Shown one piece after another: positions 4,781 to 32,000 of a DNA stretch of 32,000 nucleotides (positions are counted from its first letter, which is position 1; every line of letters starts with the position of its first letter). The translations under genes were made by a program, and so were the position numbers. Under the pieces are notes generated by a model that worked only from the letters and a program-made list of their open reading frames with translations, was not told the origin of the DNA and made no database searches. The stretch is from an uncultured Thermodesulfobacteriota bacterium (lineage in GTDB: Bacteria; Desulfobacterota; B13-G15). Location of the stretch: contig CAZGDM010000017.1 of assembly GCA_964525275.1 (NCBI GenBank), positions 835 through 32,834 on the forward strand, written 5' to 3'.

Positions 4781-4789
4781 AGGGGTATC

Positions 4790-6394: not shown

Positions 6395-6397
6395 AGG

Positions 6398-12002: not shown

Positions 12003-12744
12003 GCGTGCCGCACGGGACATCCTCCGGTCGAAGAGGGCGGTGGCCTTCACCGGGGCTGGTATATCTGTGGAGAGCGGCATCCCGGACTTTCGGAGCCCTG
12101 GGGGGCTGTGGAGTCGCTTCGACCCCATGGAGTACGCCCACATAGAGTCCTTCAGACGCAATCCGGAGAAGGTCTGGGAGATGTTGAAGGAGATGCTCTC
12201 CCTGACCCTGGGGGCCAAGCCCAATCCGGCCCACCGCGCCTTGGCGGAGCTGGAGGAGATGGGACTCCTCAGGGCCGTCATCACCCAGAACGTGGATGGG
12301 CTCCATCAGCGGGCCGGAAGCCGCGAGGTCATCGAGTACCACGGCACCCAGGACTGGCTGGTATGTCTCTCATGCGGCTGGAGGAGGCGTTCAGAGGGCC
12401 TGGACCTGCACCATCTCCCGCCACGGTGTGAGCATTGCGGGGCCATCCTCAAACCCGATGTGGTCTTTTTCGGCGAGCCCATCCCATGGCAGGCCCAGGT
12501 CAAGGCCGCAGAGGAGGCCCGTCAGTGCGACCTCATGCTGGTGGTGGGCACCTCGGCGGTGGTCTTCCCCGCGGGGGAGCTCCCCAGAATAGCCAAGGAC
12601 AGGGGGGCGGTGATAATAGAGATCAACAAGGAACCCACCGTGCTCACAGGGGCCGTCTCCGACTACCTCATCCAGGGGGAGGCGGGGAAGGTCCTTCCGA
12701 AGATCGTCGAGGAGGTAAAGCGGCTGAGAGATGCGAACCGCTGA
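11983..12744 (+). CDS. cobB: NAD-dependent protein deacylase, Sir2 family
   Basis: Has FTGAGISVESGIPDFRSPGGLW, QNVDGLHQRAG, catalytic His in IEYHGT, and the Zn site CLSC...CEHC. Overlaps the GT39 gene by 20 nt. Confidence 0.9.
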   Translation: MDRKLIERAARDILRSKRAVAFTGAGISVESGIPDFRSPGGLWSRFDPMEYAHIESFRRNPEKVWEMLKEMLSLTLGAKPNPAHRALAELEEMGLLRAVITQNVDGLHQRAGSREVIEYHGTQDWLVCLSCGWRRRSEGLDLHHLPPRCEHCGAILKPDVVFFGEPIPWQAQVKAAEEARQCDLMLVVGTSAVVFPAGELPRIAKDRGAVIIEINKEPTVLTGAVSDYLIQGEAGKVLPKIVEEVKRLRDANR

Positions 12745-13711
12745 GGTCACCAGCTTGCGATTCCCTGACCTCGAGAAGGCCCGGACCCTCTTCGGTCCGG
12801 GCAACGAACACCTCCGCATCCTCGAAAGACACCTCGAGGTGAAGATCCACACCAAAGGCGATCAGGTGGTCATCGAGGGGGAGGAGGGGGACCGCAACCT
12901 CGCCCGCAAGGCCCTGGAGGGCCTTTACGGCCTCGTCTCCAAGGGATACCCCCTTTACAGCACCGACGTGGAGTACGCCTTGAGGATCATCTCGGGAAAT
13001 GGCGCGGCCAAGCTCGAAGAGGTGTTCCTGGACACGGTCTTCGTATCCGCCAGAAAGAAGGTGATCACCCCCAAGACCGTGACCCAGAAGGAGTACATCG
13101 ACGCCATCAGACGCCATCCCATCGTGGTCGGCATAGGACCCGCGGGCACCGGAAAGACCTACTTGGCCATGGCCATGGCCCTGAACTTCCTCACCAAAAA
13201 GGAGGTCAAGAGGATCATCCTGGCACGGCCGGCCGTGGAGGCCGGGGAGAAACTGGGCTTCCTGCCTGGGGATCTTTACGAAAAGGTCAACCCCTACTTG
13301 AGGCCCCTATACGACGCCCTTTACGACATGCTGGATTACGATCAGGCCTCTCGCCTCATCGAACGGGGGGTGATAGAAGTGGCCCCCCTTGCCTTCATGA
13401 GGGGAAGGACCCTAACCGATGCCTTCGTGATCCTGGATGAGGCCCAGAACACCAAACCCGAACAGATGAAGATGTTCCTCACACGCATGGGTTTCGGGTC
13501 CAAAGTGGTCATCACCGGGGATATCACCCAGGTGGACCTCCCGGAGGGGAAGACCTCGGGGCTCGTTCAGATCCAGCATATCCTCAAAGGCATCCGCGGG
13601 ATCAAGTTCATCTACTTCAGCGAACGCGACGTAATCCGCCACCCCATAGTCCAAGACATCATAAAGGCCTACGAGCGGGCAGAAAGGGGAGAGGACCCTT
13701 CTAAGGATTGA
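12731..13711 (+). CDS. phoH: PhoH-like ATPase (YbeZ family)
   Basis: Walker A GPAGTGKTYLAMAMAL, ILDEAQN, ITGDITQVDLP. 326 aa. Confidence 0.9.
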   Translation: MRTAEVTSLRFPDLEKARTLFGPGNEHLRILERHLEVKIHTKGDQVVIEGEEGDRNLARKALEGLYGLVSKGYPLYSTDVEYALRIISGNGAAKLEEVFLDTVFVSARKKVITPKTVTQKEYIDAIRRHPIVVGIGPAGTGKTYLAMAMALNFLTKKEVKRIILARPAVEAGEKLGFLPGDLYEKVNPYLRPLYDALYDMLDYDQASRLIERGVIEVAPLAFMRGRTLTDAFVILDEAQNTKPEQMKMFLTRMGFGSKVVITGDITQVDLPEGKTSGLVQIQHILKGIRGIKFIYFSERDVIRHPIVQDIIKAYERAERGEDPSKD

Positions 13712-13718
13712 GGATGGG

Positions 13719-14135
13719 GTGACGATCACCGACAGACAGCGTCTGCAGCGCGTCGACCCCCACTGGGTGGCGGAGGTGGCGGAGAAGGTTCTGCGATACC
13801 TCGGCCTTCAAGACAGGGAACTCAGCATCTTGCTCGTCTCAGACGATGAGATCACCGAGCTCAACCGCCGCTGGCTCCAAAGGGACCGCCCTACCAACGT
13901 CATCGCCTTCCCCATGGATGGCCCTCAGGACTTCGTCCTCGGCGACGTGGTGATATCCACCGAGACCGCAGAGCGGGAGGCCGCTGAAAGGGGGGTAGGG
14001 TTGGAGGAACACCTTGCCCTTTTGCTGGTGCACGGGATCCTGCACCTGCTGGGCTACGATCACGAAAGGGGTGGGGAAGAAGAGCTTGCCATGAGGGCCA
14101 AGGAAGAGGAGTTGCTCCAAGCGATCTTGCGTTAA
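13719..14135 (+). CDS. ybeY: rRNA maturation endoribonuclease YbeY
   Basis: HGILHLLGYDHE zinc-binding motif. 138 aa, GTG start. Canonical phoH-ybeY adjacency. Confidence 0.9.
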   Translation: MTITDRQRLQRVDPHWVAEVAEKVLRYLGLQDRELSILLVSDDEITELNRRWLQRDRPTNVIAFPMDGPQDFVLGDVVISTETAEREAAERGVGLEEHLALLLVHGILHLLGYDHERGGEEELAMRAKEEELLQAILR

Positions 14136-15152: not shown

Positions 15153-15619
15153 AGAAGAAAGGGTTAATCGCAGTAATCGCCTTGCTCCTCATGGCAACAC
15201 CCCTCTGGGCAGGATGGCCTTCGGGACCAAAGGGGCGCCGGTGGAAGGACTTCGAGATGCTGAGGATGTGGAGGCTGACGGAGGAACTCGATCTCTCCGA
15301 AGAGGAGGCCGCCAAGGTCTTTCCGCTTCTTAAGCGTTACAGCCAAAAGAGGCGGGATCTACAGCTCAAGCGACGCAAGCTCCTCAGGGAACTGCAGGAG
15401 CTGTTGGATGAGGGTGCCACGAGGGAGAGGCTCTCGGAGAAGATGGGCGAGATCGAAAAGGTTATGCGAGAACTGGAGGAAACCCGATGGGAGGAATGGG
15501 AAAGACTCAAGGACATCCTCCCCCCTCGAAAGCAGGCCCGTTATCTCCTGTTTCACCATCGCTTCGTAAAAGACCTGTGGCGCATCATGAGGAAACCGGG
15601 GGAGCCTCCTCCAAGGTAG
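15149..15619 (+). CDS. Secreted coiled-coil periplasmic protein, Spy/CpxP/heavy-metal-sensor-like (LTxxQ-type)
   Basis: I place the start at ATG 15149 (ATGA overlap with the anti-sigma stop), not at the 15023 of the track. Signal peptide MKKKGLIAVIALLLMATPLWAG. Charged helical repeats with LTEELDL / LPPRKQARYLLF motifs. Confidence 0.65.
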   Translation: MKKKGLIAVIALLLMATPLWAGWPSGPKGRRWKDFEMLRMWRLTEELDLSEEEAAKVFPLLKRYSQKRRDLQLKRRKLLRELQELLDEGATRERLSEKMGEIEKVMRELEETRWEEWERLKDILPPRKQARYLLFHHRFVKDLWRIMRKPGEPPPR

Positions 15620-16256
15620 CCACCAACGTCACCACCTCCCGGAGGGAGGAGAGGAGATGGTCTGGCCCCATGTCCTCCAGCTCCTCCCTCCCCCCCTCCC
15701 CTCCTAAGACCAGAGCCACTGGAACACCGACGGCCCGTGCAGCTTGAAGGTCTGAGGGACTGTCGCCCACAAAGAGGGCCTCGCGGGGGCTCGAACCGAG
15801 GATCCTGAGGCACCTCCTCAACCCCTCTGGATCCGGCTTGAGGAACCTCACATCTTCTCTCGTGATCACCACGTCCAAAAACCTCCGCAACCCCAGGCGG
15901 AGGAGGGCTTCTTCCGCTGCACGCCCTACATTGGTCACCACCCCGAGTCCTATCCCTTCTCCACGCAGGACTTCGAGGACCTCCTGGGATCCGTCCCTGG
16001 GCGACCAACGCTTGAGGGCGTCCTGATCATACCGATCGTAGACCTCGCCCAACTGCCCCATCACCCGAGGTAAGCGCTCCGGGGGAGAGAGCCTGATGGC
16101 CCGGTTCCAAAGGCGAGCGTAGTTGTCCCCTTTGAAGTCCTCAAGGTCAAAGCCCAGGGCCTCAAGGCGGGATCTCAACTCCGCCTCGGCCTCCTCGAGC
16201 CGCCATTGGAAGTCCACCAGGGTCCCCTCAAAGTCGAAGATCACGGCCTTGAGCAC
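15585..16256 (-). CDS. HAD-superfamily hydrolase with variant motif I (DFEGT)
   Basis: Has VIFDFEGTLVD, GVVTNVGR and FVGDSPSDLQAARAVG. I prefer GTG at 16256, which has a ggaggg SD 8 nt upstream. The 59-aa N-terminal extension of track ORF 15585..16433 has no HAD-like content. Start is uncertain. Confidence 0.7.
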   Translation of the reverse strand: MLKAVIFDFEGTLVDFQWRLEEAEAELRSRLEALGFDLEDFKGDNYARLWNRAIRLSPPERLPRVMGQLGEVYDRYDQDALKRWSPRDGSQEVLEVLRGEGIGLGVVTNVGRAAEEALLRLGLRRFLDVVITREDVRFLKPDPEGLRRCLRILGSSPREALFVGDSPSDLQAARAVGVPVALVLGGEGGREELEDMGPDHLLSSLREVVTLVATLEEAPPVSS

Positions 16257-16469
16257 TTCAACATCCCTCCGAAGAAGAAGCCGTTCCTGGCCTGGACATT
16301 TTATCACCTTTGAGGATAACCTTGCACCGTGCTCATCTGGCCCGATTGCATCCCCGAGCATTACATCTTCCCCGCTCAACTTAGCTTGCACTACAAAGTA
16401 CCCTCCTGGGCTCGCAGCAATCCCGGGGTCCAATCATCCCGAATGGCACAGCACCCCTATCCACCAGCA

Positions 16470-18734: not shown

Positions 18735-19310
18735 TCACCGACGGGGCCATCCCTCCCAGCGGCGGAAGAGCTTTGCGTCGAGGCCGAACAGATCCAGGAC
18801 CTTCCCTACGGTGTGATCGACGATGTCCTCGAGCGACTTCGGGGAGTGGTAAAAGGCGGGTACAGGCGGCATGATCACTGCCCCCATCCGAGTCGCTCTG
18901 GCCATGAGCTCAAGATGGCCCAGATGCAGCGGCGTCTCCCGCACCAAGAGCACGAGCCTCCTTCTTTCCTTCAGGGTTACATCGGCAGCCCTCACCAGGA
19001 GGTTGTCGTTGTAGGAGTTGGCGATGGCCGAAAGGGTCTTGATGGAACAGGGCGCAACCACCATGCCCGAAGTGACGAAGGAGCCGCTGGATACGGGGGC
19101 CGCCAGATCCTTTACATCGTGAACCTCATGGGCCAAGCCCTTCACGTCCTCTACCGTGAGGGAGGTCTCTATCTGGATGTTCTTCTGGGCCGCCTCGGTG
19201 AGGATCAAATGGGCCTCGACCTTCAGATCCCTCAATACCTCAAGCAGCCGTATGCCGTATATGACACCGGAGGCACCGGTGATCCCTACGATGATTCGAC
19301 CTATCTTCAT
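18735..19310 (-). CDS. ubiX: Flavin prenyltransferase UbiX (prFMN synthase)
   Basis: Has RIIVGITGASGVIYGIRLLEVL, MVVAPCSIKTLSAIANS and LVLLVRETPL. 191 aa. Starts 1 nt after the upstream stop. Confidence 0.9.
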   Translation of the reverse strand: MKIGRIIVGITGASGVIYGIRLLEVLRDLKVEAHLILTEAAQKNIQIETSLTVEDVKGLAHEVHDVKDLAAPVSSGSFVTSGMVVAPCSIKTLSAIANSYNDNLLVRAADVTLKERRRLVLLVRETPLHLGHLELMARATRMGAVIMPPVPAFYHSPKSLEDIVDHTVGKVLDLFGLDAKLFRRWEGWPRR

Positions 19311-19311
19311 C

Positions 19312-20532
19312 TTATCCCCCCGACCTTATCATCTCGTCCAGGACCTCCACTGCCCGCCGGGCGAAGGCAGGATCGCTTATATGCACGTCCATCTCCTCCA
19401 CGGGGACGGCGTCCCCGAGAACCTTCTTGAGCTCATCGACGAAGACCTGGTCGGCTTGAGGGTCGAAGAACTCCCTCCCTTCTCTGTCAAATTCGGACCA
19501 TCCCCTCCTGGGGATGAGCACATAGGTCGGTGCTTTGACCTTCCTCAGCTTTTCCCCTACGATCCGTGCAAAGGCCCGCATCTCCTGAGGCCCCATCCGC
19601 ACACAGAACCGCACATCGTAGTGGCACACCTTCCTGCCCTTCAGCAGATCCGGCATGGGACAGGAGGGAGTGAAGGCCGCATTGTCAAGCCCACCAGGGG
19701 CCACGACCCGGGGAACCCCGCCGGCCTCCAATCTCATGGGACCTATACCCTTGCTGTAACCTCCGAACATCTCATCGGCTATTTCGTGAAGGGTGAGATC
19801 GAGCACGCCGACCACAAGCCCCTGCTCGACGAACTCCTCCATGGCCATCCCCCCGCATCCGTTGGCGTGAAAGGCCACCATCTCGTAGCCCTTCGCCTCG
19901 AGGAAGGACTGGGCATGAAGGGCACAGTCAGAGTTGGCACCATAGGCACTCACGGCCACCATGGGCTTGCCTTTGGGCAGTTCGGTCCCCTTTTGCATCA
20001 TCCCGCATACAGCACGGCATGCCTGTCCGAGGATGAGCTTGATGAACTCGTTCATCCCCAGGAGGTCCGCCACCGAGTGAAACATCACCACATCCTTGGT
20101 CCCCACGAACTCCCGCACGTCCCTGGAGGCCACCGTGGAGACCATCACCTTGGGAAGGCCGAAGGGGAGGGAGCGCATGACCCTGGTGGCTATGGTCGTG
20201 CCCGTCCCTCCCCCCATCCCGAATACCCCGTGGATCCTGCCGTCCTCCAACAGGCGGTTGGCCACGATGACCGCACCCTCCGCGATGGCCCGAACGCAGC
20301 TGGCGCGATCCCTGGCCTTGATCAGCCCTTTGAGGTCATAACCTGCGGCAGATGCTACCTCTTCCTTAGTTATATCAGGTGGGATTGAGGGGTCCCCCAG
20401 GATCCCGACATCCATGAGGACGGGCTTGACGCCGAGGGACCTGACGCAATCCCTGACATAGGCGGCGTGCTCTCCCTTGGTGTCGAGGGTGGCGATAACG
20501 AGCAGGGTCTTCCCCCCACTTTCCTCCGACAT
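19312..20532 (-). CDS. UPF0261 / Tm-1-like ATP-binding domain protein, paralogue B
   Basis: Has KTLLVIATLDTKGEHAAYVRD, GMGGGTGTTIAT and LPFGLPKVMVST. I choose ATG 20532 (MSEESGGK...) rather than track start 20595, which would overlap paralogue A. Confidence 0.8.
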   Translation of the reverse strand: MSEESGGKTLLVIATLDTKGEHAAYVRDCVRSLGVKPVLMDVGILGDPSIPPDITKEEVASAAGYDLKGLIKARDRASCVRAIAEGAVIVANRLLEDGRIHGVFGMGGGTGTTIATRVMRSLPFGLPKVMVSTVASRDVREFVGTKDVVMFHSVADLLGMNEFIKLILGQACRAVCGMMQKGTELPKGKPMVAVSAYGANSDCALHAQSFLEAKGYEMVAFHANGCGGMAMEEFVEQGLVVGVLDLTLHEIADEMFGGYSKGIGPMRLEAGGVPRVVAPGGLDNAAFTPSCPMPDLLKGRKVCHYDVRFCVRMGPQEMRAFARIVGEKLRKVKAPTYVLIPRRGWSEFDREGREFFDPQADQVFVDELKKVLGDAVPVEEMDVHISDPAFARRAVEVLDEMIRSGG

Positions 20533-20563
20533 GATCACCGCCTTCCGAAGGGACAGAGGCCCA

Positions 20564-21784
20564 TCAGGACGGGAAGATCCTCCTGCAGGCCTCAAGGACC
20601 GCCTGGGCGAACTCGGGGTCCTCCATGTTGGCCTCCACGGTCTGAAGCTCGATATCGGGCTTGAGCCTCCTCCTCAGTTCCTCCACGAAGACCATATCCT
20701 CTTCGGGGTCGTAAGTGGGATTGCCCGGCTGATCCACGGAGGACCACCCCTTGAGGGGTATGACCACCACCACGGGGCCCCGAGCCTTGTTGAGCTTTTC
20801 AGCAAAGGCCCGGGCGGCCTCAATGAGCTCTTCCTTTGAGGCCCTCAGCCATGTGCGGTGTCGATCCAGGTCATATCTGCGCCTCGACCTGTGCTCCTCC
20901 GTCCAGGCCTTTTTGGGCGGGGTGATGTGGTTCACCCCACAGGTTGAGACCACCTGAGGAATCCCCACCTCACCTGCGGCCTCAAGCCTCGTGGGCCCGG
21001 CATCCCTCATCCCCCCCACCAGGTGCTCTATCACCCCACCGGGGGCGAGGTCCACCACCGCATCGAAGAGCCCCTGGCGGATCATCTCCTCCATGGCCCG
21101 GTCACCGATCCCTGCTGCGGAAAACCCCGTGACCTGAAAGCCTCCCTCCTCGAGGCCTCGCCTCACCCTGCTTGCACACTTCTCACACGGCCCGAGCATG
21201 GTCATGGCCACTGCCCTGCCCTCGGCCCTCTGAACCCGAAGGGGTGGAGTCTCGACCATGGCGCAGATGGCACGTGCTGCCCGCTCGATGACGTTCCTGA
21301 GGACCTCGCCAAGCCCCGATATCTCCACCACGGAGTGAAAGAGGCAGATGTCCCCTGTGCCTATGTAACGGGTGGACATCCCGGGAAGGGCCGCGGTGGA
21401 GGAGATCATGAGCTTGGGAAGGCCGAAGGGCAAGGCCCTCATGACATCTGTGGCCATCAACGACCCCGTGGACCCCCCGATGCCGACCACCCCGTGGATC
21501 TTTCCCTCGGCTGAGAGCTTCTTAGCGATCTCTATCGCCCCACGGGTCATCACGGCGGTAGACTGGGCGCGCTCCCTGGAGGAACGGATCTCCTCGAGGG
21601 TGCTACCCCCGGCCCGAGCCACCTCCTCCGCGGTGATATCGGCCTCTTTGCAAAGGAGCCCTTCCCTCATGGAGATGTCCATCAGGAGGACCTCACATCC
21701 GAGGTCACTGATCCTCTCCTTCAGGAAAAGGGCCTCCTCACCCTTGGTGTCGAGGGTCGCCACAAGAAGCACAGTCTTCCCCAT
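20564..21784 (-). CDS. UPF0261 / Tm-1-like ATP-binding domain protein, paralogue A
   Basis: Has MGKTVLLVATLDTKGEEALFLKE, GIGGSTGSLMAT and LPFGLPKLMISST. Collinear with paralogue B along the whole length. 406 aa. Confidence 0.8.
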   Translation of the reverse strand: MGKTVLLVATLDTKGEEALFLKERISDLGCEVLLMDISMREGLLCKEADITAEEVARAGGSTLEEIRSSRERAQSTAVMTRGAIEIAKKLSAEGKIHGVVGIGGSTGSLMATDVMRALPFGLPKLMISSTAALPGMSTRYIGTGDICLFHSVVEISGLGEVLRNVIERAARAICAMVETPPLRVQRAEGRAVAMTMLGPCEKCASRVRRGLEEGGFQVTGFSAAGIGDRAMEEMIRQGLFDAVVDLAPGGVIEHLVGGMRDAGPTRLEAAGEVGIPQVVSTCGVNHITPPKKAWTEEHRSRRRYDLDRHRTWLRASKEELIEAARAFAEKLNKARGPVVVVIPLKGWSSVDQPGNPTYDPEEDMVFVEELRRRLKPDIELQTVEANMEDPEFAQAVLEACRRIFPS

Positions 21785-21839: not shown

Positions 21840-23492
21840 CTATTTTGCCTCTTCGGCTATCTTCTTCTCGAGCTCGGCCCTGAGGACCTTCTTGTCGATC
21901 TTGCCGGAGTCCCCCACGGTGGGAAGCGCATCCACCACCTCGAGGCGCTCGGGAAGTTTGAACTTGGCGAGCTTCTTCTCGAGCAGAAACTCGGTGATCT
22001 CCTCCAAGGTGATGGTCTCTCCCGGCCGAAGCACCACGAAGGCACAGGCCCGCTCCCCCATCTCCTTGTCGGGGTAGCCCACGACGGCCACGCTCTTGAT
22101 CTTGGGGTGCTCCTGAAGCAGCCCCTCTATCTCCGCGGGGTAGATGTTCTGGCCGCCGCGGATGATCATGTCCTTGGCCCGGCCCATGATCCATAGGCAC
22201 CCTTGGTCCCACTTGACGATGTCGCCCGTGGTGGCCCATCCCTGGGGGTCGAAGACCGTGGCGGTCTTCTCGGGATCGCGGTAGTAGCCCGCCGGCGAAT
22301 GCGGCCCCCGGAACCAGAGCTGACCTGGCTCCCCTTCGGGGACCTCCTTGCCCTTGTCGTCGAGGAGTCTGATCTGATTGCCCGGCAGGGGCCTGCCCAC
22401 GGTCCTTCGTCTGAGCTCGGGCGGATCGTCCACCCGGCAGCCGGAGATGGACCCCACGTCCTGGGTGCCCAGGTCGCTTGTGATCACCCCTCCCAGGCGT
22501 CTCTCGGCTTCCTCGGCCACATCCGGAGCGAGGTAACCACCGGCAGAGCGGATGAACCTCAAGGAGCTCAGGTCGTACTGCTCCACGGGCTTCTCGAGCA
22601 TCCTCACCAGGTGGGTGGGGACCACGCCGATACAGGTGCCCCGCTCCCTCTGGATCAGCTCCAGGGCCCCCTCCGGGGTGAACTCCTCAAGGAGCACCGT
22701 CTTCGCCCCCACCAAGGGCGCGGCGAAGTAGGTCAAGGTCCCCCCGGCCCCGCCGGCAAAGGGGGCGATGGCCACGGTGATGTCGTCACCGGTGAGCTTC
22801 CAGATGTCCACCCTGGCCTTGGCGGTGCAGAGCCTGGGGGCGATGTTCCACTCAACGAGCTTGGGCAGACCAGTGGTCCCCGTGGTGCTGGTGAGCATGG
22901 CCACATCGGTGAAGGGGTTGAAGCGCCGCCCATCCAGGGCCTTCAGCTCCGCTGGGGGGACCTCCTCGTTGGCGAGCTGTATGAGGGAATAGGTCCCCTC
23001 CGGGGCCCCCGCGGGCACCTCCTCGGTGAGGAGGAAGATGTATTTGAATTTCGGCGAAAGCCCCTTGAGCTCCTGGAACATCTCCAGGTAGTTGAACTTG
23101 CGGTAGATGTAAGGGCAGACCACCGCGGAGGCCTGGGTGGTCTCTATCATGTAGGAGAGCTCCCTGTGGCGCATGTAGGCGTAAACGGTAAGGGAGATGA
23201 GGCCTGCCCTTTCGGCGGCGATCCTGGCCAAAAATGCATAGACCTCGTTTGGGGCCTGGATGATGATCCGGTCGTCTTTCTCCAACCCCATCTCCGCCCA
23301 ACGGTAGGCGATCCTGTCCACCAGCTCCACCGCTTGGGCCCAGGTGACCCTGTATCGGGAGTCGGCCAGGGCCTCGCGGTCCGGACGCTCCTCGGCGTTT
23401 TTGGCCCAGAAGTCGTAGAAGGTCTCGTCAGTCCAGTAACCCTTTCCCCTGAATTCCTCGATCATCTCATCGGTGTACCTGATGACCCTCAT
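21840..23492 (-). CDS. ANL-superfamily AMP-forming acyl/aryl-CoA ligase (EntE/DhbE-like N-terminus)
   Basis: Has TSTTGTTGLPKLV (A3), TGDIVKWDQGCLWIMGRAKDMIIRGGQNIYPAEIE (A8) and the C-terminal GKIDKK lysine (A10). The N-terminal FRGKGYW pattern resembles aryl-acid adenylating enzymes. Confidence 0.85.
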   Translation of the reverse strand: MRVIRYTDEMIEEFRGKGYWTDETFYDFWAKNAEERPDREALADSRYRVTWAQAVELVDRIAYRWAEMGLEKDDRIIIQAPNEVYAFLARIAAERAGLISLTVYAYMRHRELSYMIETTQASAVVCPYIYRKFNYLEMFQELKGLSPKFKYIFLLTEEVPAGAPEGTYSLIQLANEEVPPAELKALDGRRFNPFTDVAMLTSTTGTTGLPKLVEWNIAPRLCTAKARVDIWKLTGDDITVAIAPFAGGAGGTLTYFAAPLVGAKTVLLEEFTPEGALELIQRERGTCIGVVPTHLVRMLEKPVEQYDLSSLRFIRSAGGYLAPDVAEEAERRLGGVITSDLGTQDVGSISGCRVDDPPELRRRTVGRPLPGNQIRLLDDKGKEVPEGEPGQLWFRGPHSPAGYYRDPEKTATVFDPQGWATTGDIVKWDQGCLWIMGRAKDMIIRGGQNIYPAEIEGLLQEHPKIKSVAVVGYPDKEMGERACAFVVLRPGETITLEEITEFLLEKKLAKFKLPERLEVVDALPTVGDSGKIDKKVLRAELEKKIAEEAK

Positions 23493-23516: not shown

Positions 23517-24938
23517 TCAGTCGAGTCCCAGCTCTCCCCAGCGTTCCCTGACCCTCTTGACCATCTCCTCGTCGAGGAAGATCTCCTCGGGCTTCCGCTC
23601 CCACTCGTAGGGGATGGTGGCATCGAGGATGATCTTTGAAGCGATGTCCCTCGCGTCTATGGGCAGCGCAGGGTCCAGAGGCGTGGAACGGGCCCGTTTG
23701 ATGATCTCCGTGCTCCTCCAGGGGTCGTACCTCACGCTCAAGGCCCACCAGACGCGATCCAGGTCGTCGGCCTTTATGTCCTCGTCCACCACGATGACCC
23801 CCTTCATCCCGTAGTGGCCCGTGGTGGTGGCATGGGCTGCCATCGCCGCATGGATCGAGTGCCCGGGGTACATGGTCTTAAGGGATATTATAGCCCAGAA
23901 CCTCCCCGTGGTCTGGGGCGGGATGAAGACCGACCTGATCCCCGGCACCCTCATCGTCTCGAGTTCCGTCCAGAGGGTGGCAGTCCTGTTCAGGGACTGA
24001 ATCATGTGGGTGTCGGTGACGGGTTTGCCCACCGTGGTAACCCAGAAAATAGGATCCTTCCTCATGTAGATCCGCTTAACATGCAACACCTGTTTGGGCC
24101 ACTCCTCACCGCGTTTCCCGGAGTAATAACCCGTGTACTCCCCGAAGGGACCCTCCTCCCTCAGGTCCTTCGGGTCGATGAACCCCTCAAGGATGATCTC
24201 CGCATGGGCAGGCAGAGGCAGCCCGGTGAGCTCCCCCTCGAAGACCTCGATTGGCTCTCCCCTCAGGGCCCCGGCCACGTCGTATTCGCTCACCTGGGCG
24301 GGCACCAGAGTGCTCGAGCAGAGGAAGAGGATGGGATCGCAGCCGATAACCGCCGCAGCCGGCATCAGCTTCCCCGCCTTCTCGTACTGCTTGAAGTGCA
24401 TGTCGGCGTGTTTCCCCTTGATGATCTGCACCCCGGTATGGTTCCGATCGTGGACCATCATCCGGTAAGTACCCAGGTTCACCCACCCCGTCTCCAGGTC
24501 CTTGGTGATCAGGAAAACTGCCGTTCCGATATACCTTCCCCCATCTTTTGGATAGATATAGGGGACGGGGAAGTCCCTGAGAAGGTCTATGGCGTCCTCC
24601 TCCACTACCTGCTCGGTAACAGGGCCCGAGGGGACCTCTTTGGGCTTGATCAGCCCCTTCTCGGTTATCACCTTCATCCACCAGCGGGCCATCTCGCACA
24701 TCGAGGTCCCGGGCTTAACTCCCAGGGTTATGGCCAGCCGTTTCTCACTGGTCAGGGCGGAGGTGAGCACGGGGATGCTGTAGTCCTTGACGTTCTCAAA
24801 GAGCAGCGCCGGTCCCTTCCTCTCCTCGTTCAGTTTGGCGATATGGGAGAGCTCCAAGTTCCAGTCCACCTGGGCCTTGATCCTCTTCAACTCCCCTTCC
24901 CTCTCGCAGGCTGCAATCCACTCCCTCAGATCCTTCAT
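23517..24938 (-). CDS. UbiD-family prFMN-dependent (de)carboxylase, phenylphosphate-carboxylase-like size (473 aa)
   Basis: Has MKDLREWIAACEREGELKRI, GPALLFENV, GGRYIGT and GPFGEYTGYY (conserved Glu motif). Co-operonic with ubiX. Confidence 0.85.
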   Translation of the reverse strand: MKDLREWIAACEREGELKRIKAQVDWNLELSHIAKLNEERKGPALLFENVKDYSIPVLTSALTSEKRLAITLGVKPGTSMCEMARWWMKVITEKGLIKPKEVPSGPVTEQVVEEDAIDLLRDFPVPYIYPKDGGRYIGTAVFLITKDLETGWVNLGTYRMMVHDRNHTGVQIIKGKHADMHFKQYEKAGKLMPAAAVIGCDPILFLCSSTLVPAQVSEYDVAGALRGEPIEVFEGELTGLPLPAHAEIILEGFIDPKDLREEGPFGEYTGYYSGKRGEEWPKQVLHVKRIYMRKDPIFWVTTVGKPVTDTHMIQSLNRTATLWTELETMRVPGIRSVFIPPQTTGRFWAIISLKTMYPGHSIHAAMAAHATTTGHYGMKGVIVVDEDIKADDLDRVWWALSVRYDPWRSTEIIKRARSTPLDPALPIDARDIASKIILDATIPYEWERKPEEIFLDEEMVKRVRERWGELGLD

Positions 24939-24967: not shown

Positions 24968-24987
24968 GGGGTGACGGGGATCACCCC
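24968..24987 (-). other. Small intercistronic hairpin overlapping the ppsB-like stop codon
   Basis: ggggtga-cgggga-tcacccc (7-bp stem, 6-nt loop). An A-rich stretch rather than a U-rich stretch follows on the mRNA. Confidence 0.4.
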
Positions 24988-26051
24988 TTGGGCACCTTTA
25001 TCCTCGTCATGGCCCGCTCCATGAGGAGCTCAAAGCCGGACTTTTTGCCGAGCACAGGACCCTTCCGCTTCTGGCTCCACACGGTCTCCGGACGACTCTG
25101 GACGATGAAGATGTTCTCGGGGAAGGGAATTCCCCGATCTATAGACCACTCGATATCCTGGGGACATCCGTAGTAGTCCTCGATCTTCCGAGCCAGGGAA
25201 GCCAGTTCCCTCACCTCCTCGTCTTCGAGGCATCGCACCTGCTGAAGCTCCTCGGGGACCTCGGCATGGACCACCTCTCTCCGCTCCGGGTCGAAGACGC
25301 ACTGCACGGTCTTGGGGGAAACGGTGCAGGAGATCTCCCCGGTGACCTTATCCACCACGAAGCGGTCGGGGGTAACCTCGCCGGAGACCACCGCCTCCCC
25401 GAATCCCCAACTGCCCTCGATCACGACCTTGGAGGGATCGCCGGTGGTGGGGTCGAGGGTGAACATCACGCCCGCGGCCTTGGCGTCCACCATCTTCTGG
25501 ACCCCTACGCTGATGAGGACCTTCTCATGGGGAAATCCCATTTTTATCCGGTAAGCGATGGCCCGGGGGGTGAAGAGGCTCGACCAGCACTGAAGCACTC
25601 GCTTGAGGACCTCATCTTGCCCCCTCACCCAGAGGTAGGTCTCCTGCTGGCCGGCAAAGCTCGCCGTGGGGAGGTCTTCAGCAGTGGCGCTGGAACGGAC
25701 GGCTACGGGTAAATCCTCCATCTCCACCCTGGAGCAGAGTTCACGATAGGCCTCCACAATCGCCCTCTTCACCCCTTCGGGTACTTGGGCCTCCTCGATG
25801 GCCCGGCGGATTGCGGCGCTCGCCCTCTGGAGGGCCTCGGTATCCTCCGCGCTTATCCCAGCCAGGGCCTCATCGATCCGCTCCCTGAGCCCGGTCGCCT
25901 CGATGAAGCTTTGATAAGCCTCAGTGGTCACAGCGAACCCGGGGGGCACCTTAACCCCCGCCTTCATCAGCTCGCCGAGGCTCGCGTTCTTCCCCCCCAC
26001 CTGACCTATGAGGTCCTTGCCCACCTCTTCGAACCACAAAATGAACGCCAT
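24981..26051 (-). CDS. PEP-synthase N-terminal ATP-grasp (PPDK_N) protein, phenylphosphate synthase beta (PpsB)-like
   Basis: 356 aa (about 40 kDa). VGGKNASLGELMKAGVKVPPGFAVTTEAY is the nucleotide-binding domain of water dikinases. There is no swivel-His domain in this polypeptide. Confidence 0.8.
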   Translation of the reverse strand: MAFILWFEEVGKDLIGQVGGKNASLGELMKAGVKVPPGFAVTTEAYQSFIEATGLRERIDEALAGISAEDTEALQRASAAIRRAIEEAQVPEGVKRAIVEAYRELCSRVEMEDLPVAVRSSATAEDLPTASFAGQQETYLWVRGQDEVLKRVLQCWSSLFTPRAIAYRIKMGFPHEKVLISVGVQKMVDAKAAGVMFTLDPTTGDPSKVVIEGSWGFGEAVVSGEVTPDRFVVDKVTGEISCTVSPKTVQCVFDPERREVVHAEVPEELQQVRCLEDEEVRELASLARKIEDYYGCPQDIEWSIDRGIPFPENIFIVQSRPETVWSQKRKGPVLGKKSGFELLMERAMTRIKVPKG

Positions 26052-26100: not shown

Positions 26101-27951
26101 TCAGGCCTCCGCCCTTTTGACGATCTTCACCACGCCGTTGTCTCCATCTACGCGGATGATGTCACCAGTCCTTATCACCTGGGTGGCTACACCGGTCCCC
26201 GTAACCGACGGCAGGCCGTATTCACGGCACACGATGGCCGCGTGGCTGGTAAGGCCTCCGATGTCGGTGACCGCCGCCTTGATCTTCGTGAACACCGGCG
26301 CCCAGGACGGATTGGTGGTGGGACATACCAGGATCTCGCCCGGCTCGATGGTGTTGACCTCCTCCAGTAGCTTTATCACCCTGGCCTTGCCCTCCACCAC
26401 GCCGGCAGAGGCCGCAAAGCCCTTGAGCTCGGTGACCTCCTCTGGCGTAACGGTCACGCCCTTCAGCCACTCGTTGACCTTCTCAGAGGTAATGCCCCAG
26501 AGCATCACAGTGAAAGGCTCGGCGATCTCCTCGGGCACGGTCCCCAAGGCAGGCGGCGGTGCCCACTTCTTGGCGGCCTCGAGGATCCTCTGGCGCTTGG
26601 CGGCCTTCTCCTGCCAGTACTTACCCCTGTGCGGCACCCCCTCGCCCAGGGCCCAGGAGGTCACCAGGTCCTCAAGCAGGTAGGGGACCTCGAAGCGGTT
26701 GAAGAGGAAGATGTCGTCCACTTCCTTCAGCATCCCGTACTTCACCAGCACCCTGCCGAATTCCCGCATCTTTTCAAAGACGATGGTGTGGAACCAGTGC
26801 TCCACCCAGAACAGGTGATCTTCTGCGTAGCGATAGATGGTGCGGCAGGTCTTGTAGGCGTCATCGAAGGTCTTGCGATCCTCGTCGGTCTTTATGAGCT
26901 TGCGGTACTCCTCAACCAGCCTGTCCCTTTCGGCCTCGATCTCCTCTAAATATCGCTCGATCCTTTCGCCCTTCTCAAGCCTCTCCACATAGCTCTTCAA
27001 GTAGCCGAAGGGGACATCGAGCTTGTTTATCCAGCTTCCCTCATAGTGGAACCAGCCGCTACCACAGGAGACGAAAAACCACGGGTCCTTTCTCTTCTCG
27101 AAGGACTCGAGCCACTCCCTCCCCTCGGGGAAGGTCTTGAGTCGTTCGATCTTCTCGGAGGCAGGGGCGTCGCTCTTCAGTATCTCCTTCACCTGGGGCA
27201 GGGTGTAGGCGAGGCGGGCGAGCTTACAGAGCTCCTCCTCGGGCCTGAACATCACCACATAGGCCCCGGCCACCATCTTCCCGATGGTGCTTTCGCTGAT
27301 CCCTGGGAACAGCTTCCGACAGGTGTCGGCGAACATCAGGTAGGCCAGATAGGAGAGGTTCAGGTACTCGAAGTGATACTGCCATGCCTTGTAAATGGCG
27401 TCTATCAGCCTGTCATAGGCCTCGATCAGCTCATAAGAGGTGTAATACCCCTTCGGGGCGGGGAAGACCCCCTCATCGGGCTCGAACTGCGGCAACTCTT
27501 TGGGGATTTTTATCTCTTCAACTTCGCGGCCAAGGGCCGTGAACTTCTTGTGCCACTGCTCCCAAAGCTCATCGTAATGCTCGAAGACGTAAAAAACCCG
27601 CTTCTGGAAGAGCTCGGCCTTCTTCTGCACTATGTCCTCCGGCGGAGGCTCCACGGCGCAGATGTACATGTAACAACCGACCATCCTCTGGGCCACGCCC
27701 TGCGCTGGGGGGATGCAGAACACACGGGTGTTGTACTGCGACAGGGCGATCTGCCACGCCTCTTGAAAGATCAGGTCCCAGGGATACATGGGATCGGGGG
27801 CGTGGATCTTGTCGTGATACCAGAACTGCCGTTCTTCCCAATCCTTCCGGTCCTCGCTGAAGATGTAATAGGGGGGATACATCTCCTCCCACCCCTCAAG
27901 CTCAGGCGGATACTCCACCTCTAAAGGTTTGGGGAAACCTCCTTGTGCCAT
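26101..27951 (-). CDS. PEP-utilising-enzyme swivel-His protein with a large N-terminal substrate domain, phenylphosphate synthase alpha (PpsA)-like
   Basis: 616 aa (about 70 kDa). The C-terminal mobile domain is GEILVCPTTNPSWAPVFTKIKAAVTDIGGLTSHAAIVCREYGLPSV, containing the catalytic His. The N-terminal 500 aa is unlike the PEP/pyruvate TIM barrel. Confidence 0.8.
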   Translation of the reverse strand: MAQGGFPKPLEVEYPPELEGWEEMYPPYYIFSEDRKDWEERQFWYHDKIHAPDPMYPWDLIFQEAWQIALSQYNTRVFCIPPAQGVAQRMVGCYMYICAVEPPPEDIVQKKAELFQKRVFYVFEHYDELWEQWHKKFTALGREVEEIKIPKELPQFEPDEGVFPAPKGYYTSYELIEAYDRLIDAIYKAWQYHFEYLNLSYLAYLMFADTCRKLFPGISESTIGKMVAGAYVVMFRPEEELCKLARLAYTLPQVKEILKSDAPASEKIERLKTFPEGREWLESFEKRKDPWFFVSCGSGWFHYEGSWINKLDVPFGYLKSYVERLEKGERIERYLEEIEAERDRLVEEYRKLIKTDEDRKTFDDAYKTCRTIYRYAEDHLFWVEHWFHTIVFEKMREFGRVLVKYGMLKEVDDIFLFNRFEVPYLLEDLVTSWALGEGVPHRGKYWQEKAAKRQRILEAAKKWAPPPALGTVPEEIAEPFTVMLWGITSEKVNEWLKGVTVTPEEVTELKGFAASAGVVEGKARVIKLLEEVNTIEPGEILVCPTTNPSWAPVFTKIKAAVTDIGGLTSHAAIVCREYGLPSVTGTGVATQVIRTGDIIRVDGDNGVVKIVKRAEA

Positions 27952-28230: not shown

Positions 28231-29679
28231 ATGAGGGAATTCTCCAATAGAGAGATCACCTGGGATCACTTAATATTGGGACTGAAAAAGACCACCAGGG
28301 ATTTCCTGGAGAACGTCCTTCAGAACATCATAGATTCCATCGTCGTGACGGACCTGAGCGGGAGGATCATTTTCTTCAACAGGTTTTCAGAGGAGCTCTT
28401 TCGGTACCGGGCGGAGGAGGTCTTAGGGCGTCATATCTCCATCCTCGGGGCGAAGCGTCCCAACGTACTCGAAAGGATTAGGCAAGGCAAGACCTTCCGT
28501 GGCGAAATCGTCCTCAAGACGAAGGACGGAAGGGCTTTCCCCGCGCGGGTGGTCTGCGTCCCCATTAGCGATGAAAACAACCTCCCCATAGGTATGGTGG
28601 GGGTGGCAAGGGATATCACCGAGGAAAAGCGACAGCAAGAAGAAAAGAGGTTTCTCCAGAGGCAGCTGCAAGAGCTACAGAGGCGTCTTTCCCAGAGCTC
28701 GCTATACGGGGACATCGTGGGCACCAGTGAGGCCATGCTCAAGATCTACGCTCTGATGGAGAAGGTAGCCCCCCTGGACTGCAACGTCCTCATAGTGGGG
28801 GAAAGTGGCACTGGGAAAGAATTGATCGCGAGGGCTATCCATAACAAAAGCCCCAGGAAAGACCATCCCTTCGTTATAGCAGATTGTGCCCTCCTGTCCG
28901 CAGGACTTCTCGAATCGGAGCTCTTCGGCTACGAAAAGGGGGCCTTCACAGGGGCCTACACCAGGAAGAGGGGTTATTTCGAAGTGGCCGACGGAGGTAC
29001 CCTCTTCTTGGACGAGATCGGGGATCTCCCTCTTGAAGTCCAGGGAAAACTCCTCAGGGCAGTGCAAGAGCGGGTGATCTTCCGGGTAGGTGGGGTAGAT
29101 CCTATAAAGGTCGACGCCCGGATAATAGCCGCCACCAACCAAGATCTGGAGGAAAAGGTCAAGAGGAAACAGTTTCGAGAAGACCTCTATTATAGGTTGA
29201 GCGTAGTAACCATTAAGGTCCCCCCTCTCAGGGAGAGGAAAGAGGACATCCCCCTATTGACCACCTACTTCCTCAACAAATATGCGGCCAGATTCGGCAA
29301 AAGGGTCGAGATGAAACAGGAAGTTTACGACGCCTTTCGCAAATACCCCTGGCCGGGAAATGTGAGGGAACTGGAAAACCTCATCCAAAATTTGCTGATC
29401 GTATCTGGGGGCGATACCGTCTGTCTTAGAGACCTTCCCCCTAAGATACTGGCCCATCTGAAACCATCGCCCTTAGATATGCCCCCCCACAGTTACGGGG
29501 AGATGAAAAGGAAGGTGGTGGATGACTTCACGAGGAATTTCCTCACCACCATGCTGAAGAAAAACAGGGGAAATGTGAGCAAAACGGCCAGAGAGATCCG
29601 CCTCCGCAGGACCTCCCTGCAGCGGTTAATGAGGAAATACGGCATCCGATCCGCCGATTTCCGCAATCAGCCTCTTTAA
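28231..29679 (+). CDS. Sigma54-dependent transcriptional activator: PAS sensor, AAA+ domain, Fis-type HTH
   Basis: PAS ([18 protein letters not shown]...[10 protein letters not shown]), Walker [15 protein letters not shown] loop (EKGAFTGAY), [10 protein letters not shown], and the C-terminal [29 protein letters not shown]. No receiver domain. Confidence 0.92.
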
Positions 29680-30136: not shown

Positions 30137-31036
30137 ATGGAAGGGCTGGGGTATCTACTGGCACTGCCGAGGTTTGAATACTTCTCGCCCAAGACTGTCG
30201 AGGAGGCCTGTTCCCTGCTCGAGCGCTACGGCCGGGAGGCGAAGCTCTTAGCGGGAGGTACCGATTTGCTGGTGGCCATGAAAAAGGGGAAGGAATCACC
30301 CCGTTATCTGATCGGCATAAAGGCCCTTTCCGGTCTGGACTTCATAGAGTACGACGGAGAACTGTTGAGGATTGGGGCCCTGGCGACCTTACAGTCGGTG
30401 GCCGATGCAGCAATAGTCCAGGAGCGGTTCGGCCTCCTGGCCACGGCGTGCAGAAAAGTGGGAACCCCCCAGGTGCGAAATATGGGGACCCTGGTGGGCA
30501 ACATCTGTAACGCTGGCCCCTCCCAGGACACCGTCCCCTCGCTGCTCGTGTTGGGGGCGAAAGTAAAGGCGGTGAGCAGCAAAGGGGAGAGGACCATCCC
30601 TTTAGAAGGTTTCTTCCGCGGCCCCTTCGAGACGGTCCTCGAGGATGGGGAGATGGTTACAGAGGTCCAGATCCCGACCCCTCCGCCCCACAGCGCAGGT
30701 TGCTATCGGTGGATGACCAAGAGGACCACAGTGGATGAGACCCTGGTGGGGGTGGCCGTGTTGGTAGTGGCGGACCCCACCCATGAACGCTGCGAGGACG
30801 CAAGGATTGCCCTCTGTTCGGTGGCCCCTACCCCCTTCAGGGCGAAGAGGGCAGAGGCACTCCTTCGGGGAAAGGAGATCGACGAAGGGTTATTGGAGGA
30901 GGTGGGACGCACAGCCGCCGAGGAGACGAGGCCCCGGGGCAGGGCGGAGTACAGAAAGCTCCTCACCTCTCTCTTGGTCAAGAAGGCCCTGACCGAGGGG
31001 TGGAAAAACCTCACAGGGCAGGAGGTAACGGCATGA
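30137..31036 (+). CDS. FAD-binding medium subunit of a xanthine dehydrogenase / CO dehydrogenase-family molybdoenzyme
   Basis: Has FEYFSPKTVEEACSLL, AKLLAGGTDLLVAMK and GTPQVRNMGTLVGNICNAGPSQD. Strong aaggaggggg SD. 299 aa. Confidence 0.88.
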   Translation: MEGLGYLLALPRFEYFSPKTVEEACSLLERYGREAKLLAGGTDLLVAMKKGKESPRYLIGIKALSGLDFIEYDGELLRIGALATLQSVADAAIVQERFGLLATACRKVGTPQVRNMGTLVGNICNAGPSQDTVPSLLVLGAKVKAVSSKGERTIPLEGFFRGPFETVLEDGEMVTEVQIPTPPPHSAGCYRWMTKRTTVDETLVGVAVLVVADPTHERCEDARIALCSVAPTPFRAKRAEALLRGKEIDEGLLEEVGRTAAEETRPRGRAEYRKLLTSLLVKKALTEGWKNLTGQEVTA

Positions 31037-31512
31037 AGCGTGTGATCAGCCTCACTGTAAACGGGGAGACCCATGAGGTGGTGGTGGAACCACGGACGAC
31101 CCTTCTGGAGGTCCTAAGGGACTCCTTGGGACTCACGGGGGCAAAGGAGGGCTGCAGCCTGGGAAACTGCGGGGCCTGTACCGTGTTGCTTGACGGAAAG
31201 CCCGTCCTGTCCTGTTTGTTGCTCGCCGTGGAGGCCCAGGGCAAGGAGATCGTCACCATCGAGGGGCTGGCCGAGGGGGGTAAGCTCCACCCCCTCCAGG
31301 AGGCCTTCGTGGAGCACGGCGCCGTGCAGTGCGGTTTCTGCATCCCAGGGATGATCCTTTCCGCCAAGGCCTTCCTCGATGAAAACCCCCACCCCACCGA
31401 GGAGGAAGTCAAGGAGGCCATATCGGGCAACCTCTGTCGCTGTACGGGCTACAGTGACGCCGTCAGGGCCATCCTCGCGGCGGCAAAGGCGAAGGAGGAA
31501 GGGGAGAGATGA
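31033..31512 (+). CDS. [2Fe-2S]x2 small subunit of a xanthine dehydrogenase-family molybdoenzyme
   Basis: I place the start at ATG 31033 (ATGA overlap with the FAD subunit stop). Motifs: EGCSLGNCGACTV, QCGFCIPGM, NLCRCTGY. Confidence 0.9.
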   Translation: MKRVISLTVNGETHEVVVEPRTTLLEVLRDSLGLTGAKEGCSLGNCGACTVLLDGKPVLSCLLLAVEAQGKEIVTIEGLAEGGKLHPLQEAFVEHGAVQCGFCIPGMILSAKAFLDENPHPTEEEVKEAISGNLCRCTGYSDAVRAILAAAKAKEEGER

Positions 31513-32000
31513 GGCAGTACAGGGTAGTCGGGAAGCCTCTGAAGAGGGTGGACGCCGGGGTGAAGGTCACGGGAGAGGCCCAGTTCGCCGCCGACATCAA
31601 GCTTCCCAACATGCTTCACGCAAAAATCTTGAGAAGTCCCCACCCCCACGCGAAGATCTTGAGGATCGACACCAGCAAGGCAGAGGCCCTCCCCGGCGTG
31701 AAAGCGGTGATCACTGGCAAGGACGTCGGGCCCATAAGGTTCGGCTTTGTGGATACGCCTCGCTACCCCGCTGACCAATATCCCTTGGCCATTGACAAGG
31801 TGCGCTATGTGGGGGAGGAGGTGGCCGCGGTGGCCGCCGTGGACGAGATAACCGCCATCGAGGCCCTTAAGCTCATCGAGGTGGAATACGAGCTCCTCCC
31901 TGCGGTCTTCGATCCTGAGGAGGCCATGAAAGAGGGGGCCCCGAAAATCCACGATGAGATCGTACCCAACACCACCTGTGCATGGCAGGACTGGGGTGTC
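31509..32000 (+). CDS. Molybdopterin-binding large subunit of a xanthine dehydrogenase / aldehyde oxidoreductase family enzyme (N-terminal fragment; continues beyond the window)
   Basis: Not in the ORF track because it has no stop in the window. ATG 31509 (ATGA overlap) translates to MRQYRVVGKPLKRVDAGVKVTGEAQFAADIKLPNMLHAKILRSPHPHAKILRIDTSKAEALPGVKAVITGKD..., the standard N-terminal a/b-hammerhead domain. Confidence 0.85.
   Translation, partial: MRQYRVVGKPLKRVDAGVKVTGEAQFAADIKLPNMLHAKILRSPHPHAKILRIDTSKAEALPGVKAVITGKDVGPIRFGFVDTPRYPADQYPLAIDKVRYVGEEVAAVAAVDEITAIEALKLIEVEYELLPAVFDPEEAMKEGAPKIHDEIVPNTTCAWQDWGV

Follow-up and report, generated by a model that had tools for sequence, protein, structure and literature searches.

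What do two proteins of the UPF0261 family do inside an operon for anaerobic aryl carboxylation? The question is raised by a 32,000-nucleotide stretch of DNA (the window) from an uncultured Thermodesulfobacteriota bacterium (assembly GCA_964525275.1, contig CAZGDM010000017.1, positions 835 to 32,834), in which two such genes, here termed A and B, lie between the genes for an aryl-CoA ligase and UbiX, the synthase of prenylated flavin mononucleotide (prFMN). Two gaps stand out in the anaerobic carboxylation of phenol and aniline: the clusters of strict anaerobes lack PpcA, PpcC, PpcD and PpsC of the Thauera paradigm, and the ATP cost is high. Up to four ATP equivalents have been estimated for the strict-anaerobe pathway, which seems too much for sulfate reducers and syntrophs (PMC6114531). 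The UPF0261 proteins of these clusters are conserved, substrate-induced, ATP-binding and so far undiscussed, and the first catalytic function in the family, that of the aromatic kinase MarK, dates only from 2025. Through the link to MarK they become candidates to fill either gap, as an aryl kinase that costs less ATP or as a carboxylase subunit not recognized before. We find that A and B represent different branches of UPF0261, each linked to aryl carboxylation clusters, and tentatively suggest that both transfer phosphoryl groups in this pathway.

Family, fold and active sites of A and B

Both proteins match PF06792 (N-terminal) and PF23189 (C-terminal) over their full length, with E values of 1e-55 to 1e-68 in a Pfam search, and both score above the cutoff of NCBIfam model NF002674. 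A aligns with MarK (PDB 9MPY) at an E value of 3e-60 and with Tm-1 at 5e-49. The AlphaFold2 model of A (predicted local distance difference test score 90) finds 9MPY in a Foldseek search (E 2.5e-34) and superimposes on Tm-1 with template modeling (TM) scores of 0.83–0.86; the 9MPY and Tm-1 entries (3WRW-3WRY) are the only ones that match both of its domains. Family membership is firmly established for A and B, as is the fold from the model of A, and B is predicted from its sequence to adopt the same MarK/Tm-1 fold. An earlier description made from the DNA alone (the original prediction) had named two collinear UPF0261 genes of 406 residues, with their motifs, neighbors and spacing, and the open reading frames and sequence bear it out in every detail. 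TLDTKGE is common to the two proteins. Both retain the GGSTG motif (GIGGSTGS in A, GMGGGTGT in B) and the LPFGLPK motif, within LPFGLPKLMISS in A and LPFGLPKVMVST in B. A and B are spaced 31 nucleotides apart, and one base separates the TAA of B from the ATG of ubiX at 19310. A mechanically listed 427-residue frame for B, opening at a TTG, overlaps A; the 406-residue form is recorded in the protein collection as P0241.

The view that UPF0261 has no assigned biochemical function, also part of the original prediction, is out of date. MarK (Saro_1862) of Novosphingobium aromaticivorans, a homodimer of the UPF0261 family, phosphorylates acetovanillone and other aromatics at their phenolic hydroxyl, turning ATP into ADP (PMC12624787). 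In Novosphingobium it substitutes for the heterodimeric dikinases AcvAB/HpeHI in the step before a carboxylase; of the genomes with aromatic kinases, about 25% hold both kinds of enzyme (PMC12624787). HpeHI, AcvAB and CreHI are homologues of the phenylphosphate synthase PpsAB, and the HpeHI/AcvAB-type pathway includes an AMP-forming CoA ligase and a HAD phosphatase, along with a carboxylase whose substrate must be phosphorylated (PMC9618137). Because MarK replaces homologues of PpsAB, a UPF0261 kinase and a Pps-type dikinase are known, interchangeable first steps of a phosphorylate-then-carboxylate route. By analogy, the operon in the window may follow this logic under anoxic conditions.

UPF0261 domains can be fused to other modules. 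Family member P0404 (684 residues) has an N-terminal TIM barrel resembling phosphoenolpyruvate (PEP) hydrolase, P0321 (588 residues) a C-terminal GNAT acetyltransferase, and P0312 repeated UPF0261_C domains. The absence of a TIM-barrel partner from the window, as originally described, is firmly established: tblastn detected no PF09370 gene there, and a PF09370 query taken from P0404 matched neither the window nor the open reading frames of the 122 loci that we compared. PF09370 is also missing from every Pfam-annotated context of these loci. We reject on these grounds a Tm-1-style two-component system with its TIM barrel elsewhere in the cluster.

A and B are 37% identical (E 3e-79), whereas each is 58–70% identical to its own orthologues in metagenome-assembled genomes (MAGs) of Syntrophorhabdia, Desulfatiglandales, Desulfobacterales and Bacillota. 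These values exclude a recent tandem duplication; by sequence, A and B are two anciently diverged UPF0261 subfamilies, a structure that we regard as firmly established. The tandem A-B arrangement occurs only in the lineage of the window (L007/8, L023, L099-101 and L116, all 88–97% identical). To speak of a duplicated pair, as the original prediction did, is misleading. Since A or B is elsewhere usually found alone or apart from the other, an obligate A/B heteromer is unlikely.

To compare the active sites, we mapped onto A and B the MarK residues assigned to ATP (D14, T15, K16), to the phenolic oxygen (Gly195, His219) and to the substrate pocket (F283, I285, H304, H348). The DTK motif is present in both proteins (D12-T13-K14 in A, D17-T18-K19 in B), and its residues are kept in 108–118 of 118 A orthologues. 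The acceptor site of B is canonical throughout: G198, H222, G225-C-G227-G228, D283 and H384. B has the MarK-type acceptor site and A does not. In A, a clade-contrast analysis identified replacements at MarK H219 (S222), G225 (D228), D282 (N285), H384 (N386) and K142 (G144), together with the gain of an invariant His at the position of F283. Canonical members, MarK and B among them, do not vary at the first four of these positions. The S, D, N, N and G states of A are fixed in 116–118 of the 118 A orthologues, indicating selection, not decay; H286 and T288 are likewise nearly invariant. Judged by this pattern of conservation, the site of A looks remodeled, not dead.

We placed these differences in the context of the whole family by an exhaustive search (3839 clusters at E<=1e-3). 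Among 133 full-length representatives, the canonical residues are present at His219 in 114, at Gly225 in 101, at Asp282 in 102 and at His384 in 90. The modal signature of the family, DTK-K-H-G-D-H, is that of B and MarK, against DTK-G-S-D-N-N in A. The S-D-N-N signature is confined to the nearest clusters of A, some of which have EEK in place of DTK. UPF0261 can thus be divided into a canonical type and a remodeled, previously undescribed "S-D-N-N" type, each a clear target for enzymology. As far as residues can tell, B has every feature expected of a MarK-type kinase.

Linkage to carboxylation clusters and expression in Desulfatiglans anilini

The original prediction had tied the pair to a system of UbiD, UbiX and Pps-like proteins, and this link proves real and strong. 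We scanned one genome per GTDB species and found more than 557 relatives; the best 80 of these, all A-type, were used for the locus counts. The gene immediately upstream of the A-type gene encodes the aryl-CoA ligase in all 67 loci with enough flanking sequence (in one, an extra UPF0261 copy lies between), and UbiD is encoded two genes upstream in 54 of 58. Of the 27 loci flanked by 8 kb or more on each side, 25 hold UbiD, 26 UbiX, 22 PpsA, 23 PpsB, 12 a second UPF0261 gene and three a HAD gene. Clustering of open reading frames de novo adds LysR regulators, HcrBCA-like genes and an LpdD-like protein as recurrent neighbors. The arrangement spans Bacillota, Syntrophorhabdia, Desulfatiglandales and Desulfobacterales.

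A metagenome scan for B yielded 24 loci, many of them short. In most of the B-type loci that we compared, the B-type gene adjoins PpsB, UbiD, NUDIX, LpdD or UbiX. The order is PpsA-PpsB-B-LpdD-UbiX in the Syntrophorhabdus type, UbiD-B-NUDIX-LpdD-UbiX-flavin reductase in L012/13, HcrBCA-B-NUDIX-LpdD-UbiX, lacking the flavin reductase, in L097, and B-UbiD-UbiX-LpdD with divergent ppsAB in L106-L111. A UPF0261 gene stands directly upstream of UbiX in 33 loci (A-type in 25, B-type in seven, another type in one) and LpdD takes this place in a further 42; all sampled clusters are Pps-linked. Co-occurrence of PF06792 with UbiD and UbiX genes is positive for both subfamilies, and the specific association with the pathway is firmly established.

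Other UPF0261 types and modules are found in the same clusters. In L012/L013 (9299-11371), L097 (9301-10756), L106 and L110, a prFMN supply module lies beside the B-type gene; it comprises a NUDIX protein that likely converts dimethylallyl diphosphate to dimethylallyl phosphate (DMAP), an LpdD-like chaperone, UbiX and, other than in L097, a flavin reductase. Upstream of PpsA in L062, a cluster of a Desulfobacteraceae MAG that also holds an A-type gene, a UPF0261 gene (about 680-1900, plus strand) encodes a protein 47% identical to MarK with a MarK-like pocket (DTKGTHGGGFVHF). A fourth subtype, which we call D-type, has DER for DTK, keeps His219 and carries G225D (L103 from 4484, L104 from 3654, L106 from 4881, L034 from 3600). 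The D-type gene directly follows UbiD and a B-type gene directly precedes UbiD, so that a canonical and a derived copy recur around the carboxylase.

Expression of UPF0261 genes of such clusters has been recorded in Desulfatiglans anilini. Its phe cluster encodes UbiD (H567DRAFT_02059), a ligase (02058), a "UPF0261 family" protein (02057) and UbiX (02056), in the same order as the window, and in its ani cluster UPF0261 gene 03869 lies between pasB (03868) and a ligase gene (03870), with no UbiX (PMC7500099). The published proteome table lists cells grown on 4-aminobenzoate, aniline, benzoate and phenol, in this order (PMC7500099, supplement). H567DRAFT_02057 has areas of 0, 5.0e7, 5.3e7 and 2.5e9, with the same trend in the replicate sheet, and H567DRAFT_03869 has areas of 5.4e9, 6.5e8, 0 and 0 (PMC7500099). 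From this table, the signal of 02057 on phenol is about 65 times that of UbiX and about one seventh that of UbiD. On aniline, UbiX protein was undetected and UPF0261 abundant (PMC7500099). We compared the published molecular masses of the two UPF0261 proteins with the proteins that we had retrieved and found no match, and they are assigned to the A-type from gene order only.

Neither D. anilini paper discusses the UPF0261 proteins, and the supplement of a Syntrophorhabdus bioreactor paper does not mention them. What the D. anilini papers stress is the lack of ppcC, the ligase 02058 without known function and the puzzling ATP cost. Ligase 02058, which resembles DHB-AMP ligases and is the counterpart of the ligase in the window, is strongly induced by phenol, and the role of 4-hydroxybenzoate-CoA ligase was given to a second, PaaK-type enzyme. 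Because 02058 has no known function and this role is assigned elsewhere, the pair of ligase and A may carry out a step not yet defined. Formation of phenylphosphate from phenol and ATP was measured in D. anilini extracts by an assay that did not distinguish AMP from ADP as product. Conversion of aniline to 4-aminobenzoate was reconstituted in vitro with no UPF0261 protein (PMC7500099).

Possible roles in the pathway

Based on these observations, we tentatively favor a reading in which A and B are phosphotransferases dedicated to the pathway: B would be an ADP-forming aryl kinase, and A a neofunctionalized paralogue tied to the ligase and carboxylase part. Their chemistry we infer as follows. 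The strict-anaerobe pathway would lead from phenol or aniline through the aryl phosphate and the 4-substituted benzoate to the CoA ester, with A and B as dedicated components. Like MarK, B would convert an aryl hydroxyl and ATP to aryl phosphate and ADP and so feed the UbiD carboxylase, at the cost of one ATP equivalent versus two for the AMP-forming PpsAB-like dikinase encoded alongside. A would bind nucleotide without being a simple MarK-type phenol kinase. It could act on another pathway intermediate, for example the substrate or product of the ligase, or partner B or the carboxylase in a non-canonical way. In the lineage of the window, where their genes have become neighbors beside ubiX, A and B may form a heterodimer; dimers are known for both MarK and Tm-1.

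Several points weigh against this reading. A second kinase is not strictly needed, because the operon encodes a complete PpsAB-like dikinase and recombinant PasAB alone phosphorylates aniline and phenol (PMC7500099). The A-type, which of the copies has the tightest and most widespread linkage to the clusters, lacks the phenolic-oxygen His of MarK, and 15 of the 27 long-flank loci have no second, canonical UPF0261 gene within 10 kb. The EEK of sister clusters hints at a role other than that of a kinase for the A clade. Some B-type proteins about 65% identical to B are encoded in unrelated contexts (L014, L098, L105 and L114), and A and B are only 30–33% identical to MarK.

The original prediction had suggested an ATP-dependent activase, a chaperone for prFMN loading or a replacement for PpsC, PpcC or PpcD, which are candidate roles at most. 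An unlikely alternative is that UPF0261 proteins, especially of the A- and D-type, are subunits of the strict-anaerobe phenylphosphate carboxylase that functionally replace PpcD (and PpcA/C), handing phenolate to a single UbiD and passing the phosphoryl group to water or ADP. The clusters hold only one PpcB-type UbiD and mostly lack a HAD or PpcD-like gene, as the long-flank counts illustrate. The A-type or D-type gene always lies between UbiD and LpdD/UbiX, and B- and D-type genes directly flank UbiD in L103/L104/L106. A site that has lost a general-base-like His and gained an invariant Asp in the GxGG loop fits a reaction with phenolate as leaving group. In D. anilini UPF0261 comes close to the catabolic enzymes in abundance and far exceeds UbiX, and phenylphosphate carboxylase was not detectable in extracts assayed in a mix without nucleotide. 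This failure is, however, conventionally put down to oxygen sensitivity, and refolded PpcB and PpcB2 alone convert phenylphosphoamidate to 4-aminobenzoate (PMC7500099). A and B also show no homology to PpcD or PpcC: Pfam detected neither a HAD domain nor a small-subunit match in them, and the lineage of the window encodes a separate HAD hydrolase. Nor did Pfam find in A or B a CBS domain, which would mark PpsC, a CBS protein of about 24 kDa encoded after ppsAB; in Syntrophorhabdus-type loci, B takes the position after PpsB. A specific form of the carboxylase-subunit idea, for a distinct phenylphosphate or phenylphosphoamidate carboxylase, is a long shot: the remodeled C-domain pocket of the A- and D-type would bind aryl phosphate, the phosphoryl group would pass to ADP at the DTK motif and regenerate ATP, and phenolate would go to the PpcB-type UbiD. 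If so, the ATP cost of phenol activation would be halved. The idea would also account for two observations, that the pathway is affordable for sulfate reducers and syntrophs and that the nucleotide-free carboxylase assays of D. anilini failed.

We consider it quite unlikely that A is a non-catalytic pseudo-kinase, binding nucleotide or ligand as a regulator or scaffold, for instance of the aryl-CoA ligase or of B, with B as the only enzyme. The replacement of four canonically invariant residues, the loss of DTK in related clusters and the invariable position of A next to the ligase would suit such a role, and Tm-1 sets a precedent, working by ATP-bridged protein binding and not by catalysis. 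Yet the substituted S, D, N and N residues are conserved together with H286 and T288, and the nucleotide motifs are intact, a pattern that suggests a new active site more than a lost one. Moreover, most clusters hold A without B.

It seems improbable that the UPF0261 proteins serve prFMN, either as a kinase supplying UbiX with DMAP (from prenol and ATP) or with flavin mononucleotide, or as an ATP-dependent helper in prFMN loading or maturation when oxygen is absent. Gene order speaks for such a function: a UPF0261 gene directly precedes UbiX as often as stated above, in the place that LpdD takes in other loci; B ends one base before ubiX in the window; and B heads runs with NUDIX, LpdD and UbiX, followed by a flavin reductase in L012/13 and by none in L097. 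Where they are encoded, however, NUDIX and the flavin reductase already cover the supply of DMAP and reduced flavin mononucleotide; tblastn detected no NUDIX, LpdD or flavin reductase gene in the window. It is to the ligase gene that A is most tightly linked, and not to ubiX. In D. anilini, the ani cluster has UPF0261 and no UbiX, UPF0261 is abundant on aniline when UbiX goes undetected, and on phenol it far exceeds UbiX. Organisms such as Escherichia coli make prFMN and are not known to use a UPF0261 protein for it, which also counts against this role. Our literature search for a connection of Tm-1-like ATP-binding proteins with UbiD, or of a DMAP kinase with UbiX, returned nothing relevant. 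Finally, it is hardly credible that A and B only travel with the operon and function outside the aromatic pathway: some B-type genes do sit in unrelated neighborhoods, but synteny is kept from Bacillota to Desulfobacterales and induction in D. anilini is substrate-specific.

Surrounding genes and comparison with known systems

The operon runs along the minus strand from 27951 to 15585, with closely spaced genes in the order PpsA-like, PpsB-like, UbiD, aryl-CoA ligase, A, B, UbiX, ADP-forming acyl-CoA synthetase and HAD (Table 1). Divergent from it, a PAS-sigma54 activator gene is followed by HcrB-, HcrC- and truncated HcrA-like genes, which complete a gene set from phenol to benzoyl-CoA. By eye, no clear sigma-54 (-24/-12) promoter was recognized upstream of ppsA. 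A scan of the operon for sigma-70 promoters and terminators performed no better than on shuffled sequence and was not used.

Table 1. Genes of the aromatic cluster, with their positions in the window and the basis of each annotation
Feature	Position	Strand	Basis or remark
UPF0261-A, A-type member of the MarK/Tm-1 family, 406 residues	20564..21784	-	ATG start, TGA stop; Pfam, 9MPY match, AlphaFold2 model
UPF0261-B, B-type, MarK-like, 406 residues	19312..20532	-	ATG start, TAA stop; Pfam, residue mapping
UbiX flavin prenyltransferase (prFMN synthase)	18735..19310	-	PF02441; NF004685, 274 bits
AMP-forming aryl-CoA ligase (DHB-AMP / cyclohexanecarboxylate-CoA ligase-like)	21840..23492	-	Invariant upstream neighbor of A-type genes
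UbiD-family carboxylase, PpcB type (phenylphosphate carboxylase beta)	23517..24938	-	TIGR02724, 594.7 bits (trusted cutoff 469)
PpsB-like ATP-binding subunit of phenylphosphate-synthase-type dikinase	24981..26051	-	PF01326, E 1.9e-122
PpsA-like subunit with His phosphocarrier and substrate site	26101..27951	-	PF00391; NF006153, 949 bits
ADP-forming (NDP-forming) acyl-CoA synthetase, 711 residues	16470..18605	-	PF13549, PF13607, PF13380
HAD-IA hydrolase, D-x-E motif I (FDFEGT)	15585..16433	-	True start probably downstream of TTG
PAS-sigma54 activator, likely regulator	28231..29679	+	Divergent from operon
4-Hydroxybenzoyl-CoA-reductase-like HcrB (30137-31036), HcrC (~31033-31488), HcrA (start 31509, to window end)	30137..32000	+	

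Behind ubiX, the window encodes an ADP-forming acyl-CoA synthetase in the place where its closest relatives (L007, L023 and L101, with genes 88–97% identical) have a PaaK-type AMP-forming ligase. No homologue of the synthetase was found in any of the 122 loci; it may represent a lineage-specific swap to a cheaper activation of aryl acids. The HAD proteins linked to the cluster, in the window and in L006, L007, L008, L016, L017, L023, L087, L092 and L101, all have D-x-E (FDFEGT/FDLEGT) instead of the canonical D-x-D in motif I, and unrelated HAD proteins of the same loci carry DLDGT. From these motifs, the D-x-E proteins seem to form a subfamily of their own, which may supply the pathway with its aryl-phosphate phosphatase. 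Outside the aromatic cluster and unrelated to it, the plus strand from 4169 to 14135 carries housekeeping and envelope genes: a VTT-domain protein, two PMT-type glycosyltransferases, a DegT aminotransferase, a GT2, a Gfo/Idh/MocA oxidoreductase, an LPG-synthase-TM protein, SIR2, PhoH and YbeY.

The findings make the two standing questions of anaerobic phenol carboxylation directly testable and are relevant to the engineering of CO2-fixing aryl carboxylation. Among known systems, MarK is one of the nearest to A and B. They have its two-domain fold and family in common and are stand-alone proteins of about 400 residues lacking a TIM barrel, and the carboxylation pathway alongside which MarK is encoded likewise depends on phosphorylation of its phenolic substrate. 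B also shares with it the DTK, G195, H219, GxGG, D282 and H384 positions. In contrast, MarK belongs to an aerobic acetovanillone pathway with a biotin carboxylase, whereas the window encodes an anaerobic pathway with a UbiD/prFMN carboxylase and, in addition, a PpsAB-like dikinase. The window also holds two non-identical paralogues, one of which, A, lacks H219, G225, D282 and H384, and the pocket residues F283, I285, H304 and H348 are matched in neither A nor B. The N-terminal region of tomato Tm-1 (PDB 3WRV-3WRY) resembles the model of A as closely as the TM scores given above indicate, and its ATP-binding Lys of the DTK motif (K20) is kept. Unlike A and B, Tm-1 carries a fused PEP-hydrolase-like TIM barrel, and it inhibits a viral replicase through protein binding.

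The dikinases PpsAB, PasAB, AcvAB, HpeHI and CreHI catalyze the same step as that proposed here, phosphorylation of an aryl hydroxyl or amino group before carboxylation or oxidation, and one is encoded in the operon of A and B. They belong to the PEP-synthase family and are not homologues of UPF0261; they use a His phosphocarrier and convert ATP to AMP and Pi, spending two ATP equivalents. PpcD and PpcC of the Thauera aromatica phenylphosphate carboxylase, and PpsC, are missing from the strict-anaerobe clusters, where UPF0261 could replace them functionally. They are a HAD phosphatase, a 10-kDa protein and a CBS-domain protein, respectively, with no relation to UPF0261 in sequence or fold. Close counterparts in a studied organism are H567DRAFT_02057 and 03869, which share with A the position between ligase and UbiX (phe) or next to the ligase (ani) and are induced by the pathway substrates; their A-type assignment is by gene position alone. 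Compared with these systems, A and B are not categorically new; from their sequences, they would be phosphotransferases of the MarK family in a new, anaerobic and UbiD-dependent context, and unrecognized conserved members of the phenol and aniline clusters.

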